64,000 nucleotides of DNA. Source: a virus (lineage: Duplodnaviria > Caudoviricetes). The position numbers and the translations under genes were made by a program. Every line of letters starts with the position of its first letter. Position 1 is the stretch's first letter. Where the stretch lies: IMG/VR virus record IMGVR_UViG_2895374923_000001, positions 1 through 64,000 of that record; one strand, given 5' to 3'. The notes beneath the pieces were generated by a model. The model had not been told where the DNA came from. It worked only from the letters and a program-made list of their open reading frames with translations, and made no database searches. Below, in pieces: positions 2,399-39,882 of this stretch.

Positions 2399-2444
2399 AA
2401 GCGCGCCCTGCAGGATTCGAACCTGCGACCGTCGGATTAGAAGT
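2399..2444 (-). repeat. att core copy (displaced 3' half of tRNA-Arg), 46 bp
   Basis: AAGCGCGCCCTGCAGGATTCGAACCTGCGACCGTCGGATTAGAAGT is identical to 39806-39851. Confidence 0.95.
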
Positions 2445-2536
2445 TCTAGGCGTGGGGTTCCTGGAGGGCCCCCCAGAGCCGCTTCGCTGTTCACCGAACC
2501 TCCAGGACCCTCCAGGCACCTAGGGGACTACCCGGC

Positions 2537-2560
2537 CGTTGCTACACCCGTTGCTGCACA
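2537..2560 (+). promoter_or_regulatory. Putative integrase arm-type sites
   Basis: CGTTGCTACACC-CGTTGCTGCACA direct repeat, mirrored at 39736-39759 inside the other att end. Confidence 0.7.
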
Positions 2561-2578
2561 GGACGGCCACTCCCCCGG

Positions 2579-2821
2579 CTACTTCTTCTTCGGCACACCA
2601 CCCCTCGGAGCAGGCTCGATGCCGTTGTCCCGAGCGAGCTTTCTTACGTGCGCAGCAGTGAAGGGTGAGTGCTCCACCACGTCGGTGGGGCGCTTGCCGG
2701 CCTTTAGGGCGGCGACGACGTCGTCCACGACTTCCTGTTGCGCCTCGTCGTGCGCGGCCTTGGTGTCGCGGTATCGGCGGGTGCTCTCGTCGAGCTTGTC
2801 GAGTGGGTCCATCTGGGCCAT
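2579..2821 (-). CDS. Small HTH-like protein, putative repressor of the divergent transfer operon
   Basis: 80 aa, C-terminal PTDVVEHSPFTAAHVRKL helix-turn-helix-like segment; divergent from 2988. Confidence 0.65.
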   Translation of the reverse strand: MAQMDPLDKLDESTRRYRDTKAAHDEAQQEVVDDVVAALKAGKRPTDVVEHSPFTAAHVRKLARDNGIEPAPRGGVPKKK

Positions 2822-2987
2822 GCCAAACAGGCTAGCGCAAGTCTCTTGCGATTCCTACTGGCGTTCTCTACTCTGGAGTCAAGAGCAATCGCCACATAGA
2901 AGCGATTGCGGTAAGCGGTTAGACGGCCCCCGCCGTGCGACTCCACCGCAGGACGAGGGCCTGGACCGGGAAGAGAGCTCCCAGCTT

Positions 2988-3563
2988 ATGAACGATCGTA
3001 CGACCCTCAATGACGAGGCCGCCCGCACCACCGGCCGTGCCGATGCCGAGACGGCGCAGCCGCGCGCGAAGTACGACCGCACCCGTTACGCAGACGGGTA
3101 CGGCCCGCAGGTCCCCGAGGCGTGGGAAGACAAGGCGTACCGCGAGGGCTTCGCTGCGGCGAACAAGGTCCGCTTCCAGTACGTGGGCATGGCGAAAGCG
3201 CGCGAGAACGAGCGCGACGACGAGGCCGCCTACTGGTTGGAGAGCCACCCGTGCCCGGAGTGGTGCTCCCGTGCCCTGCACCTGGGCAGTGACCACCCCA
3301 CCGACCGCATGCATGACAGCGCCATCGGGTTCGTCTCGCTGAACACGATGGAGCCCGAGGTGTACCCCGACCCGGACCGGTTCGGCGCTCCGCAGGTGAA
3401 CTTCCAGCTGACCCAGCACTACCGCGAGGTCGAGCCGCGCATCTACGTCAGCAACAGCGCCCAGGACTTGAACCTGTACGCCTCGCTCGACGAGGCGGAG
3501 CAGTTCGCGAACGCCCTGCTGACCCTCGTCGCCCGTGGGCGCGGAGAGGGCAGCCCCACATAG
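2988..3563 (+). CDS. Hypothetical protein, DUF6907-like (CPEWC...H...H)
   Basis: ATG 2988 after a purine-rich RBS; motif common in actinomycete mobile elements. Confidence 0.6.
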   Translation: MNDRTTLNDEAARTTGRADAETAQPRAKYDRTRYADGYGPQVPEAWEDKAYREGFAAANKVRFQYVGMAKARENERDDEAAYWLESHPCPEWCSRALHLGSDHPTDRMHDSAIGFVSLNTMEPEVYPDPDRFGAPQVNFQLTQHYREVEPRIYVSNSAQDLNLYASLDEAEQFANALLTLVARGRGEGSPT

Positions 3564-3715
3564 CCGAACGGCCCTCAGCCGGTGCGTCAACACCGGCTGA
3601 GGGCCTGGACCAATCCACCTGACGTAACCAGGGGAGAGATCGTGACCACGAAGGTACAGCAGTTCGCCACGCCGGATGAGCGGCGGCAGGTGTACGCCGG
3701 AACGGAGGCGTACGC

Positions 3716-37047: not shown

Positions 37048-37370
37048 GGTGGTTCTCCTTGTTCCTGGAAGTTCAAGCGGGGTCATGCTGGGTTAAGTTG
37101 TCGGCCCCCTCAGTGGGATCGTGCGGTAGCAGGAGTTGCACCTCCTGTTACCTGCACCCCGCTGGGGGGCTTTGTGCTTTGCGGACACCAAGAGTCTCCG
37201 GGATTCCCCCAGACCCCTCCTTGGTCCACTACATAAGCTAACGGGTCCGATGGTGGTTCACAACTCGCCTCGACCCTTGCAGCTTGCGCAAGGCGCAGGA
37301 CGGGAGCCCAAGGACTTATGCGCATCCGCATAGCGCGACACAGAACGGCGTGTTCGAATCCTTCTGGGCA

Positions 37371-37721
37371 CGTTGCTACTCGTTGCTACTCGTTGCCACT
37401 CGTTGCAGGAGACGAGGCTGATCGAGAGCGAAGCAATGTAACGCAGGACAACGCAAGCAGATGACTGAAGATGCATGAAGATCAGAGATAGTCAGAGATC
37501 GCCTGGTAGCAAGGCAGTCCTGGGCAGTTTTAGGCACCCGGACGGTGCGAAGGCTCCTCTGAACTGGTAGGGAACAGTAGGGAACAGAAGGAATCGTGTC
37601 GGCCTGGGGTTTCATGACAGCCCGCCATTCCTAAGCAGTGATCTCCGATGTGCACTTCTTCGCACACCCCAGGCAGTCCAGGAGATCCATGGGAGTCCCT
37701 AGAGTCTGTATAGGTCTGTAG
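37371..37721. repeat. Array of distinct 10-bp-period tandem repeat blocks in the xis/repressor intergenic region
   Basis: For example CGTTGCTACT x4, GGAACAGTAG x3, (A/T)(G/A)(A/G)GTCTGTA x2. Confidence 0.8.
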
Positions 37722-37825
37722 AAGACTTGCGGCCATGCATGATGAAAGCTACCTTCTCATGCATGAGCTGTCCGCGATGTGCGCACCCTTGGCGCGTTCT
37801 GGACGCTCCTAACCCCACTCTGGAG

Positions 37826-38401
37826 ATGCTCTTGACCGAGTTCGCCGACTGGCTCAGCACGACCGCGAGGGGCCTCGGCTACCGCACGGACGCCCAGCTC
37901 GCTGCCGCCCTTGAAGTGCAGCAATCCACTGTCACGCGGTGGCGCAAGGGCAACCAGCCGCAGATCAAGCACCTGATCGAGATGGCCCGCCTCTTCCAGA
38001 TGCCGGTGGCTCCCCTGCTTGTCCTGGCAGGCCACGTGCCGGCGGACCTCTTGGGGGGTGTAGAGCCTGCTGGGCTGCCAATGACGGAAAGTGTGCGACG
38101 GATTCGTGATGCGCCGCTGACTGACCTGCAGAAGAAGGCGTTGACCGTCTACTGGGACAAACGTCTCGCTGACGAGCGCCAGAAGTTGTCATATCTCATC
38201 GACTGGATCGCGGCCGGTGACAGCACGTCTCGGCAAGAGGCAGGTGACTCGCTGTTGGACCTGATCACGCAGGGGGTCCGATCGCAGGCAGCCACTCACC
38301 TCATGGAACTGATCGAGACCCTTGTCGCAATCGAAGCGACGCCGCGAAAGCGACGCCGCCGCACAGTCCGCCAGGACTCCCCCGACGACATACCGGAGTA
38401 G
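37826..38401 (+). CDS. XRE-family repressor of element 1 (start uncertain; 37739 or 37762 possible)
   Basis: TDAQLAAALEVQQSTVTRWRKG HTH; directly upstream of int. Confidence 0.8.
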   Translation: MLLTEFADWLSTTARGLGYRTDAQLAAALEVQQSTVTRWRKGNQPQIKHLIEMARLFQMPVAPLLVLAGHVPADLLGGVEPAGLPMTESVRRIRDAPLTDLQKKALTVYWDKRLADERQKLSYLIDWIAAGDSTSRQEAGDSLLDLITQGVRSQAATHLMELIETLVAIEATPRKRRRRTVRQDSPDDIPE

Positions 38402-38403
38402 CC

Positions 38404-39708
38404 ATGGCCGAGAGGAAGCCACGGACCCGAGGAAACCGCGAAGGCCGCCCCTACCAGCGCGCCTCTGACGGTCTATGGGTAGCGACCGTCTACCTACCGA
38501 ACGGCCGAAGGAAACCCATCTACGGCAAGACCCGCGCGGAAGCAGTCAGCAAGAAGAAGACGGCCGAGAAGGAGATCGCTGCGGGCCAGCCGGTCACTGC
38601 GGGGCGTACGGACACCCTCGCCCACTACCTGCTGAAGACCTGGGTGGGCGTGACCCTCCCACAGCGCGTCGCCGCCGGCCGACTGGCACCGAGCACACTC
38701 GACAGCTACCGCGAGAAGGTCGACCTGCACATCGTCCCGCACCTGGGCAAGGTCAAGCTGGTCGATCTTTCCACGAGACACATCCGGACCTGGTTACTGG
38801 AGTTGGCCGACAAGCCCAGCGGCAACCGGCGCCGCAAGCTCCGGCCGGGCGAGAAGAAGCTCCCCGAGCCCGAGAAGCTGTCGGCCCGGACTATCGCCTA
38901 CTGTCACGCCGTGCTGCGCAAGGCGCTCGCCGACGCGGTGGATGACGAGATCATCGGGAAGAACGTGCTCACTCTGGTGGACGCGCCCTCGGTGGACAAG
39001 AAGGAGTTCAAGCCCCTCACCAAGGAGGAGGCTGCACGCTTCCTGGTCGAGGCCGCGCATGACCGGCTGTGGGTGTACTGGCTAGTGCTTCTGGCCTTGG
39101 GCCTGCGCCGCGGCGAGGGACTCGGAATGCGGTGGTCGCACATCGACCTCGACGCGGGCTCCGTACGCCTGGAGAAGTCAGTTCAGCGGCTGCGCGGCGA
39201 GAAGAACGAAGCAACGGGCAGACGGAGCGGCCAACTGGTCGAGAAGCGGCTGAAGACCGTCGCAAGCAAGGCGACCGTGGCCATCCCCTCGACTGCTCTC
39301 CAAGCGTTGAAGGACCTGCATGAGACGCAGGAGGCCGACCGCGAGGGAGCCGACGTATGGATTGATCCCGACCTCGTCTTCTGTACCAGCCTCGGCACCC
39401 CCCTGGAGCCTCGCAACGTCAACCGGGCCTGGTACGCGCTGTGCAAGCGCGCAGACCTGCGTCAGGGGGATGACGAGGACGGGCTGAGGGTGCATGACCT
39501 CCGGCACGCCTGTGCCAGCTTCTTGTTCGCGAAGGGCAACGACATCAAGACGATCCAGAGTGTGCTGCGTCATGCCCGCCAGTCGACCACCAGCGATCTT
39601 TACGTGCACATCTTCGACGAGGTGAAGCGGAAGGCCGCCAAGACCATGGACAGCGTGCTGGTGGATCTCACGCAACAGCGCGCGAAGCGCAGGAAGGCGG
39701 CCTCATGA
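38404..39708 (+). CDS. int: Tyrosine integrase of element 1 (intact)
   Basis: N-terminal arm-binding domain, GLRRGE, HDLRH, LRHA, DLY. Confidence 0.95.
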   Translation: MAERKPRTRGNREGRPYQRASDGLWVATVYLPNGRRKPIYGKTRAEAVSKKKTAEKEIAAGQPVTAGRTDTLAHYLLKTWVGVTLPQRVAAGRLAPSTLDSYREKVDLHIVPHLGKVKLVDLSTRHIRTWLLELADKPSGNRRRKLRPGEKKLPEPEKLSARTIAYCHAVLRKALADAVDDEIIGKNVLTLVDAPSVDKKEFKPLTKEEAARFLVEAAHDRLWVYWLVLLALGLRRGEGLGMRWSHIDLDAGSVRLEKSVQRLRGEKNEATGRRSGQLVEKRLKTVASKATVAIPSTALQALKDLHETQEADREGADVWIDPDLVFCTSLGTPLEPRNVNRAWYALCKRADLRQGDDEDGLRVHDLRHACASFLFAKGNDIKTIQSVLRHARQSTTSDLYVHIFDEVKRKAAKTMDSVLVDLTQQRAKRRKAAS

Positions 39709-39808
39709 ATCGCCTCGTCCAAGATCAAACGCACGCGTTGCTACACACGTTGCTACATACGCGATCTTGGCATTCTGCGCGATCAAGGAAGTGCCTGGTC
39801 AGTACAAG

Positions 39809-39882
39809 CGCGCCCTGCAGGATTCGAACCTGCGACCGTCGGATTAGAAGTCCGATGCTCTATCCAGCTGAGCTAAGGGCGC
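39809..39882 (-). tRNA. tRNA-Arg (anticodon TCT)
   Basis: GCGCCCTTAGCTCAGCTGGATAGAGCATCGGACTTCTAATCCGACGGTCGCAGGTTCGAATCCTGCAGGGCGCG forms a cloverleaf. Confidence 0.97.

Follow-up and report, generated by a model that had tools for sequence, protein, structure and literature searches.

Closest described systems

Two Streptomyces plasmid-phages, pZL12 and pFP4, are described in other papers as both conjugative and able to form infective particles (PMC3583192, PMC4170104). We compared with these and other systems an element at positions 2399-39851 of IMG/VR record IMGVR_UViG_2895374923_000001, in which the genes of a temperate tailed phage are combined with a TraB-type DNA transfer (tra) operon and a clt-like repeat site. 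The window, that is, the whole stretch of 64,000 nucleotides that was analyzed, corresponds to bases 2-64001 of contig C2 of an 11.4-Mb genome (55 contigs, contamination estimate of 7%). The primary descriptions of the two plasmid-phages are reportedly those of Zhong et al. 2010 (J Bacteriol 192:3747) for pZL12/phiZL12 and Chen et al. 2012 (Plasmid 68:170) for pFP4.

In pZL12 and pFP4, one replicon unites infective tailed particles with a major tra gene and its adjacent genes, according to the same papers; the window element resembles them in gene content. The two plasmid-phages are large episomal plasmids, and pZL12 and its relative pSLE1 carry ParA/ParB (PMC4487206), whereas the window element is 37 kb, is integrated in a tRNA gene by a tyrosine integrase, has Prim-Pol/D5 genes and lacks par genes. 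No ParA/ParB pair was found in the element, in which one weak ParB-N-like match was present at 32341-32871. To call the combination one that lacks a precedent would be too strong given pZL12 and pFP4; as judged from its genes, the element appears to be a chromosomally integrating variant of this known dual-lifestyle kind. In Nonomuraea gerenzanensis, the chimeric prophage PhiNon1 replicates by itself and integrates at tRNA-Val; its authors drew a comparison with pZL12 (PMC5431353), and our TraB search gave no match in PhiNon1.

The Streptomyces plasmids pSVH1, pSG5, pSN22 and pJV1 provide the closest described TraB/clt systems. Full-length homology at 27-33% identity was found, and the shared features are a membrane anchor, an FtsK-type motor, 8-bp direct repeats near traB (PMC4447253) and, as a prediction for the window TraB, a C-terminal DNA-recognition domain. 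In contrast, the window TraB belongs to a divergent subfamily, there is no adjacent GntR TraR/KorA gene, and the Spd proteins are not recognizably related. Integrative and conjugative elements of actinomycetes (AICEs) share with the window element a tyrosine integrase that targets a tRNA gene, replication by Prim-Pol, and an FtsK-like Tra protein accompanied by clt (PMC3218068; PMC2440964).

In phage-ICE tandems of Streptococcus and other bacteria, separate elements are joined by accretion at att sites (PMC13651849). These tandems and the conjugative prophage Phi1207.3 (PMC4260502) are similar to the proposed behavior of the window element in that phage DNA moves by conjugation after excision by a phage integrase. 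However, the tandems consist of two elements, use the type IV secretion system (T4SS)/relaxase machinery of the ICE, and, according to their authors, are not hybrids (PMC13651849), whereas the window element has a single att pair around both modules and encodes a one-protein double-stranded DNA pump. Lytic Streptomyces phages such as Jaresh and AndoPrime (PMC13587820) likewise encode an FtsK-superfamily ATPase; their FtsK/SpoIIIE-like genes differ in belonging to phrog_1358, and no TraA-like gene, clt array or membrane-protein operon was reported for them.

A single att pair encloses the phage and tra modules

Genes were called from third-position G+C (GC3) and open reading frame (ORF) length, with G+C ranging from 62 to 74% over the window. 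A 53-nt direct repeat was found at 2399-2451 and 39806-39858 (94% match), in which the first 46 nt (2399-2444 and 39806-39851) are exact. On the right, the copy forms the 3' part of the tRNA-Arg(tct) gene at 39808-39882 (minus strand), which is intact, and the pair encloses 37.4 kb. A scan of the 64-kb window for the 24-nt att core, with up to three mismatches allowed, returned exactly these two copies and no third one, where none would be expected by chance. The ends and the integration and replication genes are as follows.

2399-2451, no strand: attL, copy of the tRNA-Arg 3' part, first 46 nt exact
34250-35617, minus: D5_N/DUF5906 helicase of the replication module
35617-36651, minus: Prim-Pol (PF09250, E 1e-28), a type also used by Prim-Pol AICEs
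36706-37086, minus: HTH_17 protein (excisionase/MerR-type helix-turn-helix, HTH), candidate Xis
37727-38401, plus: HTH_3 repressor-type protein
38404-39708, plus: tyrosine integrase with a complete catalytic domain (PF00589, E 6e-22), reading towards the right att copy
39806-39882, minus: attR in the intact tRNA-Arg(tct) (tRNA 39808-39882)

Apart from the integrase of the element itself, no integrase, insertion sequence (IS)-like terminal repeat or extra att copy was found inside 2452-39805. The internal att site and integrase (2452-38403) by which a phage-ICE tandem would be recognized are thus missing, and the original prediction of one att-bounded element, undivided between its phage and tra parts, is borne out by the exact 46-nt repeat. 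IS or secondary att ends flanking the tra block were also looked for, as had been proposed, and an end-repeat search found none. Taken as a whole, 2399-39851 appears to be one mobile element made of a temperate HK97-type siphovirus and an actinomycete TraB/clt module. The nearest relatives of its TraB in homologue searches are in Nonomuraea genomes, and the host is a Nonomuraea-type soil actinomycete.

A second tyrosine integrase gene, which had previously been overlooked, is located at 434-2167, just outside attL, and points towards attL. It contains an in-frame TGA (1940-1942) within the conserved RLHDLRH box, and the frame resumes at 1973-2167; paralogues with 58-60% identity are present on contigs C1 and C19. 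This gene is probably the dead integrase of another tandem element cut by the contig start, so the tRNA-Arg gene appears to carry a tandem array. Two other partitions of the region were rejected. The tra block was not assigned to the element left of attL, since it is found on the right side of that att copy, at which the left integrase points from outside. The segment 27860-39808 was not taken as a separate capsid-forming satellite of the phage-inducible chromosomal island (PICI) type; seen in full context, it forms that end of the 37.4-kb phage where terL and the early, replication and integrase genes lie.

The tra operon encodes a divergent TraB

The tra operon (2988-7456, plus strand) lies between attL and the lysis genes, in the orientation opposite to the latter. 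All of its ORFs are intact and translationally coupled, with genes that overlap at start and stop. The operon and its surroundings contain the following features.

2579-2821, minus: 80-aa protein, divergent from the tra operon, possible regulator
2988-3563, plus: DUF6907 protein (Pfam), tra operon gene 1, kept in related AICEs
3716-3892, plus: 58-aa ORF with coding-type GC3
3962-4876, plus: 304-aa protein with four predicted transmembrane segments; conserved C-terminal part, DUF2637-like lead only
4873-5070, plus: 65-aa hydrophobic protein; its start overlaps the stop of the 3962-4876 gene
5052-5450, plus: TraA-like protein (NF041213, E 5.5e-8, below cut-off; phrog_38590)
5438-7456, plus: TraB, 672 aa (NF041214), with a predicted two-segment membrane anchor, FtsK-type motor and C-terminal helical domain
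7457-7640, no strand: clt-like locus with six GTGGCCCC (five direct, one inverted) and one variant; landmarks GTTACAGGTC, CAAGATCAAAAA and CCCACGCGCAGCCG
7639-8898, minus: NsdA-family HTH/tetratricopeptide repeat-like regulator (NF053720, E 6e-70)

TraB matched the NCBIfam model NF041214 (plasmid_TraB) with an E-value of 5e-113, residues 31-660 aligning with positions 7-628 of the 639 in the model, and tblastn against annotated Streptomyces plasmid traB genes gave 27-33% identity over 88-98% of the length. Its PHROG family is phrog_24831 (E 8e-77, function unannotated), and phrog_1358 was matched only at E 2e-4. In an alignment of 18 TraB homologues, the Walker A motif GxxGxGK (281-287; G281, G284, G286 and K287) as well as E376 and E377 were invariant, together with approximately 30 further columns. 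A hydropathy scan revealed two hydrophobic N-terminal segments (37-56 and 59-78), predicted to form the membrane anchor. Profile searches of the PDB matched FtsK only (E 0.004), and the top Foldseek matches of the predicted structure were FtsK motor domains (E 9e-9, template modelling score of 0.43-0.53 on the target). Residues 599-665 were predicted to form three helices and a strand, with a predicted local distance difference test (pLDDT) score of 75-89. The ratio of nonsynonymous to synonymous substitution rates (dN/dS) of TraB was 0.22-0.35 versus four relatives, and TraB is under purifying selection.

The TraA-like gene gave a weak but significant match to NF041213 and lies directly upstream of traB in all relatives; the match and the invariant position suggest the TraA-like assignment. 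At E 0.01, neither the TraA-like protein nor the membrane proteins drew a Pfam match, and NCBIfam and PHROGs were needed. The 304-aa membrane protein (3962-4876), for which a language-model search gave a DUF2637-like lead with a score of 0.87, below the trusted level, may have an Spd-type role. Candidates for the control of traB, a potentially toxic gene, are the 80-aa protein, which related AICEs retain beside DUF6907 (in Streptosporangium pseudovulgare at 63% identity), and the NsdA-family regulator; a promoter scan gave nothing usable.

The repeats behind traB vary together with a TraB helix

The clt of Streptomyces plasmids consists of 8-bp direct repeats recognized by the cognate TraB (PMC4447253). 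In the 64-kb window, six of the nine copies of GTGGCCCC fall within the 126 bp of 7461-7586, the first starting 5 nt past the traB stop, in agreement with the clt-like repeat cluster reported earlier at this place. Equivalent repeat arrays follow traB in 11 further hybrid and AICE loci, and 11 of 12 hybrids have 3-7 copies of an 8-mer within approximately 170 bp past the traB stop, inside a conserved scaffold. An alignment of 15 post-traB regions revealed this scaffold to comprise the repeat, a G-rich stretch, GTTACAGGTC, inverted and direct repeats, CAAGATCAAAAA and CCCACGCGCAGCCG. The 8-mer itself varies between elements, whereas the scaffold is shared by the 15 loci. The landmarks GTTACAGGTC, CAAGATCAAAAA and CCCACGCGCAGCCG, which phage hybrids and AICEs have in common (7457-7640 in the window and 14 further loci), may be a promoter, a terminator or a second protein site.

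The repeat type was found to be paired with a short helix in the C-terminal domain of TraB. The helix SRAWFQK/SRSWIQK pairs with GTGGCCCC repeats, SRAWVQK/SRxWAQK with GTGGCACC repeats, TRxWAQK with GTTGCACC repeats, and SRGW(T/L)N with GTGACAC/GCGACAC repeat types. Between the sister TraBs of the window and of Nonomuraea sp. NBC_01738, both the helix and the repeat are different. Such co-variation, in a small sample of related sequences, suggests the pattern expected of a working protein-site pair, and the conserved SRxWxQK helix is predicted to be the clt-reading part of the C-terminal domain, which in TraB proteins is of the winged-helix kind.

The virion and lysis genes are complete and open

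The gene set expected of a temperate tailed phage (packaging, head, connector, tail, lysis, repressor and integrase) is present. Within the late and lysis module (11365-29784), the virion and lysis genes are long open frames on the minus strand with PHROG matches (E-values of 1e-8 to 1e-72), and the earlier description of these genes as complete and apparently intact agrees with this result.

11365-11607, minus: holin (PHROG match)
11652-12401, minus: amidase endolysin with a peptidoglycan-binding domain (PHROG match)
12392-20279, minus: distal tail block with small ORFs, 170-aa tail-tip paralogues, the minor tail gene and the tape measure gene
15101-16969, minus: minor tail protein (PHROG match)
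16971-20279, minus: tape measure protein (PHROG match)
20298-23837, minus: tail block (chaperone, tail completion, two major-tail-family genes, terminator, head-tail adaptor)
20298-20510, minus: tail chaperone (PHROG match)
21447-21878 and 21943-22659, minus: two major-tail-family genes (PHROG match)
22819-23247, minus: tail terminator (PHROG match)
23247-23837, minus: head-tail adaptor (PHROG match)
24091-29784, minus: head and packaging block (PHROG matches)
24091-25491, minus: major capsid protein (PHROG match)
25675-26334, minus: protease (PHROG match)
26331-27713, minus: portal (PHROG match)
27574-29073, minus: terL (PHROG match)
29018-29269, minus: terS (PHROG match)
29365-29784, minus: HNH endonuclease adjoining terS (PHROG match)

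Eleven tra and virion genes could be aligned over their full length, and free of stops, to the element of Nonomuraea sp. NPDC049480, with dN/dS values of 0.16-0.55, and the virion module is under purifying selection. The similar dS values of tra and virion genes in this comparison were not relied on as a sign of co-inheritance, as dS is close to saturation in DNA of such high GC3 and the two TraBs fall into separate sub-clades of the TraB tree. Three elements, two of which have closely similar head genes, measure 36.6, 37.4 and 38.0 kb, and these similar sizes would fit a capsid-size limit that counts the tra block in.

The combination recurs in related elements

To identify related loci, the same genome, IMG/VR, 300 genomes of the family and species representatives of Streptosporangiales were used. 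On the other side of the same tRNA-Arg gene, we found a second prophage of 59 kb (C2:39884-99059), bounded by an exact 42-bp repeat of the tRNA 5' half (C2:39842-39883 and 99060-99101) and with its integrase at C2:40461-41552. Its lysin and holin genes are followed by reverse-oriented genes for TraB, a TraA-like protein and a DUF2637-like membrane protein. This TraB (C2:89140-91194; NF041214, E 4e-66) is 33% identical to the window TraB, and seven GTGGCACC repeats past the traB stop as well as a GntR regulator are present. Two phages that carry TraB thus share one tRNA-Arg gene, each using a different end of it. Elements with an integrase of the second prophage's type duplicate the tRNA 5' part and not the usual 3' part, as seen in two independent cases, tRNA-Arg(tct) and tRNA-Arg(acg).

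A scan of IMG/VR with the single TraB protein returned nothing, while a scan seeded by a 10-sequence TraB alignment worked and matched 10 loci. The five records among them that were retrieved whole (completeness estimates for related records, 45-83%) each have terL, portal and capsid genes alongside TraA-like and TraB genes, and the five represent at least three unrelated virion gene sets. One of the records, the metagenome contig IMGVR_UViG_3300049432_000053, has bases 19-144 identical to its last 126 bases, and because of this terminal identity it appears to be a circle or permuted unit of approximately 36.6 kb. Gene order is continuous over the join, namely tape measure, tail, lysin, reverse TraB, two TraA-like genes and membrane protein, then integrase, early genes, terS/terL, portal, capsid, tail tube and chaperones. 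The integrase, attP region and tra operon are contiguous, and no tRNA gene or recognizable host DNA was found on this contig. For this relative, the question raised earlier of whether the tra block is part of the excised DNA can be answered in that tra is present on the circular contig. IMG/VR lists the record as 'linear'; the 18-nt offset probably hid the overlap.

Among the Streptosporangiales species representatives, 65 TraB loci were found, at least seven of which have opposite-strand phage late genes within 10 kb downstream, while approximately 30 have Prim-Pol or integrase genes instead. We extended five of these loci and found the same layout in each; three of the five elements are bounded by a single att pair. 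The Nonomuraea sp. NPDC049480 element spans 38.0 kb and is bounded by 53-bp tRNA-Lys repeats; identity to the window is 60-91% for its virion genes and 71% for its TraB, its integrase is different, and a second integrase lies just outside attL, as in the window. The element of Nonomuraea sp. NBC_01738 covers 47 kb between 43-bp tRNA-Ile repeats, and that of Nonomuraea sp. NPDC005650 covers 44 kb between 43-bp repeats of the tRNA-Arg(acg) 5' part. Streptosporangium sp. NPDC049078 and Herbidospora sakaeratensis have the gene order of the other hybrids. Overall, the design was seen in about a dozen related elements with at least four unrelated virion gene sets, all hosts found being filamentous Streptosporangiales. 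This recurrence is the decisive evidence that the phage/tra combination is a recurrent class and no accident.

The tra module is shared with ordinary AICEs

The ten closest TraB homologues sampled from the 300 genomes of the family sit in ordinary AICEs, in which a small ORF, DUF6907, TraA-like, TraB (plus), Prim-Pol (minus) and int (plus) lie within 8-17 kb, and these ten AICEs gave no capsid, portal, terminase or endolysin matches. The window element has the same order and orientation, with a minus-strand late/lysis module of approximately 18 kb between traB and the replication genes. Similarity to the AICEs of Streptosporangium and Nonomuraea extends to a collinear tra block, identities of 69% for the TraA-like protein and 63-74% for TraB, and the same clt scaffold. 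The replication module of AICEs is of the RepSA, RepAM or Prim-Pol kind, and that of the window element is Prim-Pol. In contrast, AICEs are 9-24 kb without virion or lysis genes, whereas the window element is 37.4 kb with approximately 18 kb of packaging, head, tail and lysis genes, and on this gene content it would not be filed as a canonical AICE. Surveys of AICEs exclude or leave out virion genes (PMC3218068, PMC2440964), and our literature search found no paper joining AICE, terminase and TraB.

Some loci are less clear. Those of Nonomuraea sp. LPB2021202275-12-8, N. jiangxiensis and N. deserti were classed as AICEs by a nearby Prim-Pol or integrase gene and have capsid-like (41%/398 aa) or terL-like (25%/450 aa) matches 1-3 kb past traB; they may be intermediate or satellite-like forms. 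A third TraB of the same genome, 62-64% identical to the window TraB, is present in apparently identical copies at C14:57749-59761 and C53:19887-21899, each contig having a TraA-like gene and, 5 kb downstream, a Prim-Pol gene; this reflects either two copies of an ordinary AICE or a duplication made by the assembly. The N. gerenzanensis chromosome encodes a TraB with 71% identity, has only traA and traB in common with the window, and carries no annotation at this locus.

Other genes of the element

The remaining features of the element are cargo genes, a hairpin and early genes.

9876-10298, plus: 140-aa ORF (cargo), no assigned role
10295-11191, plus: 298-aa protein (cargo), weak kinase-fold matches (thiamine kinase/RIO/Bud32 type)
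11279-11354, no strand: hairpin with 35-nt arms, between the convergent kinase-fold cargo gene and the holin gene
30170-34085, minus: early genes (phrog_908 protein, unassigned ORFs, ParB-N-like protein, second HNH)

The hairpin is likely a bidirectional terminator, and it marks the border between the cargo/tra half and the late operon.

Two predicted exits from one circle, and the alternatives

The reading that we favor, with a probability of about 0.68, is a temperate phage with two exits from one excised, replicating circle, namely packaging and lysis or pumping by TraB/clt, so that the element can probably spread both as virus particles and by mating. The integrase and the HTH_17 candidate Xis would excise the 37.4-kb circle by att x att recombination, as its anatomy suggests, and the Prim-Pol/D5 helicase module would replicate it. 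At the first exit, concatemers would be packaged through terS, terL and HNH into virions, which the holin and endolysin would release; since the tra block lies inside the excised circle, it would be packaged in the virion as well, whatever the packaging mode. At the second exit, membrane-anchored TraB hexamers would use their C-terminal recognition helix to attach to the GTGGCCCC repeats in clt and, with help from the upstream membrane proteins, pump the unprocessed circle across hyphal walls or septa into a neighboring compartment or mycelium. After transfer, the integrase would integrate the circle at tRNA-Arg.

Several results weigh against this interpretation. Excision, virions and transfer are predictions from sequence, for the element and for its integrated relatives. 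TraB scores 379 bits against the NF041214 equivalog cut-off of 800, so it appears to be a divergent member of the plasmid TraB family; Pfam gave no FtsK_SpoIIIE (PF01580) match for TraB at E 0.01, and the structure model is poor overall (mean pLDDT of 56) and good in the ATPase core and C-terminal domain. Hidden Markov model (HMM) searches of the tra operon proteins recognized no Spd family, and of the spd-like/traA/traB operon originally proposed at 2988-7456, TraB (by NF041214) and, weakly, the TraA-like protein (by NF041213) are supported and the Spd label is not. No GntR-type Kor/TraR repressor was found in the element, though the second prophage has one. Additionally, tblastn of TraB, whole or as its ATPase part, against 50,697 INPHARED phage records gave no match even at E <= 1, and thus no cultured virion with this TraB is known. 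Finally, hybrid and AICE contexts are fully interspersed in a FastTree phylogeny of 71 TraB proteins, where the 13 hybrids require 11 changes compared with a mean of 11.4 for shuffled labels, the 'AICE' label being a rough one that rests on a Prim-Pol or integrase match within 10 kb only. This interspersion suggests frequent swapping of the tra module between AICE and phage backbones, or else frequent gain and loss of virion modules, and some of the hybrids could be of recent origin and short-lived.

Use of the same machinery within the phage cycle was also considered. In its broader form, TraB/clt would be a movement system that, once a single hyphal compartment has been infected or induced, pumps the replicating genome via cross-walls to neighboring compartments and touching hyphae, so that one infection could lysogenize, or at a later time lyse, an entire mycelium and reach strains without a receptor; we regard this as possible at a good deal less than even odds, and it would explain why the module is retained across unrelated virion types. 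A version confined to one mycelium, in which phage DNA is moved over septal cross-walls following infection or induction and lysogeny or replication would thereby extend through the multicellular host, as a bacterial counterpart of viral cell-to-cell movement, is unlikely. TraB and Spd are known to drive intramycelial spreading besides primary transfer (PMC4447253), all hosts found are filamentous, and the module persists with at least four unrelated sets of virion genes, which points to some advantage linked to life as a phage in a mycelial host. However, the same module and clt scaffold occur in ordinary AICEs, whose only known use for them is conjugation, and intramycelial movement and mating share one machinery, are not exclusive and would look alike in sequence data.

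An accidental composite would have arisen from an AICE and a prophage in tandem by deletion of the inner att and of the AICE integrase and replicase, with tra left as a remnant without a role. The tRNA-Arg hotspot with at least three elements, including the integrase pseudogene at 434-2167 that points at attL, the documented accretion of phage-ICE tandems (PMC13651849) and the plain AICEs among the closest TraB relatives are all in keeping with such an origin. It nevertheless appears very improbable, as the fusion would be needed about a dozen independent times, with tra always beyond the lysis genes and in opposite orientation. Moreover, the tra ORFs are all intact and translationally coupled, TraB is under purifying selection, the clt has intact repeats that match the recognition helix, and IMGVR_UViG_3300049432_000053 has the module in an apparently circular, unintegrated genome. 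Least likely of all is an AICE in effect, with conjugation as the sole route and with cryptic or domesticated virion genes (a defective prophage, a tailocin or the like of a gene transfer agent): the missing cultured phage in INPHARED, a backbone order equal to that of Prim-Pol AICEs and the 45-83% estimated completeness of the related IMG/VR records speak for it, but none of the head, tail, packaging and lysis genes to be expected is missing or interrupted, the virion genes are full length, stop-free and under purifying selection versus NPDC049480, and the sizes of 36.6, 37.4 and 38.0 kb would fit a capsid limit that includes the tra block.

Implications for phages of mycelial actinomycetes

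Temperate phages and conjugative elements are usually seen as separate vehicles with different host ranges and costs. In the element described here, one integrated genome appears to hold both routes, and it belongs to a recurrent class rather than being a one-off. At least 7 of the 65 Streptosporangiales TraB loci are in prophages, the virion genes fall into four or more sets unrelated to one another, and modules appear to be freely exchanged with AICEs. The matched pairs of TraB helix and 8-mer provide a natural set of graded specificities with which DNA reading by FtsK-type pumps can be studied. If transfer is confirmed, AICE surveys that demand a small size miss such elements, and virus catalogues carry their TraB as 'unknown function' (phrog_24831). 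Prophages of mycelial actinomycetes, whose hosts are major antibiotic producers, would then spread without lysis or receptors. The movement-system reading, if true, would mean virion-independent cell-to-cell spread of a bacterial virus, including into strains that lack the phage receptor.

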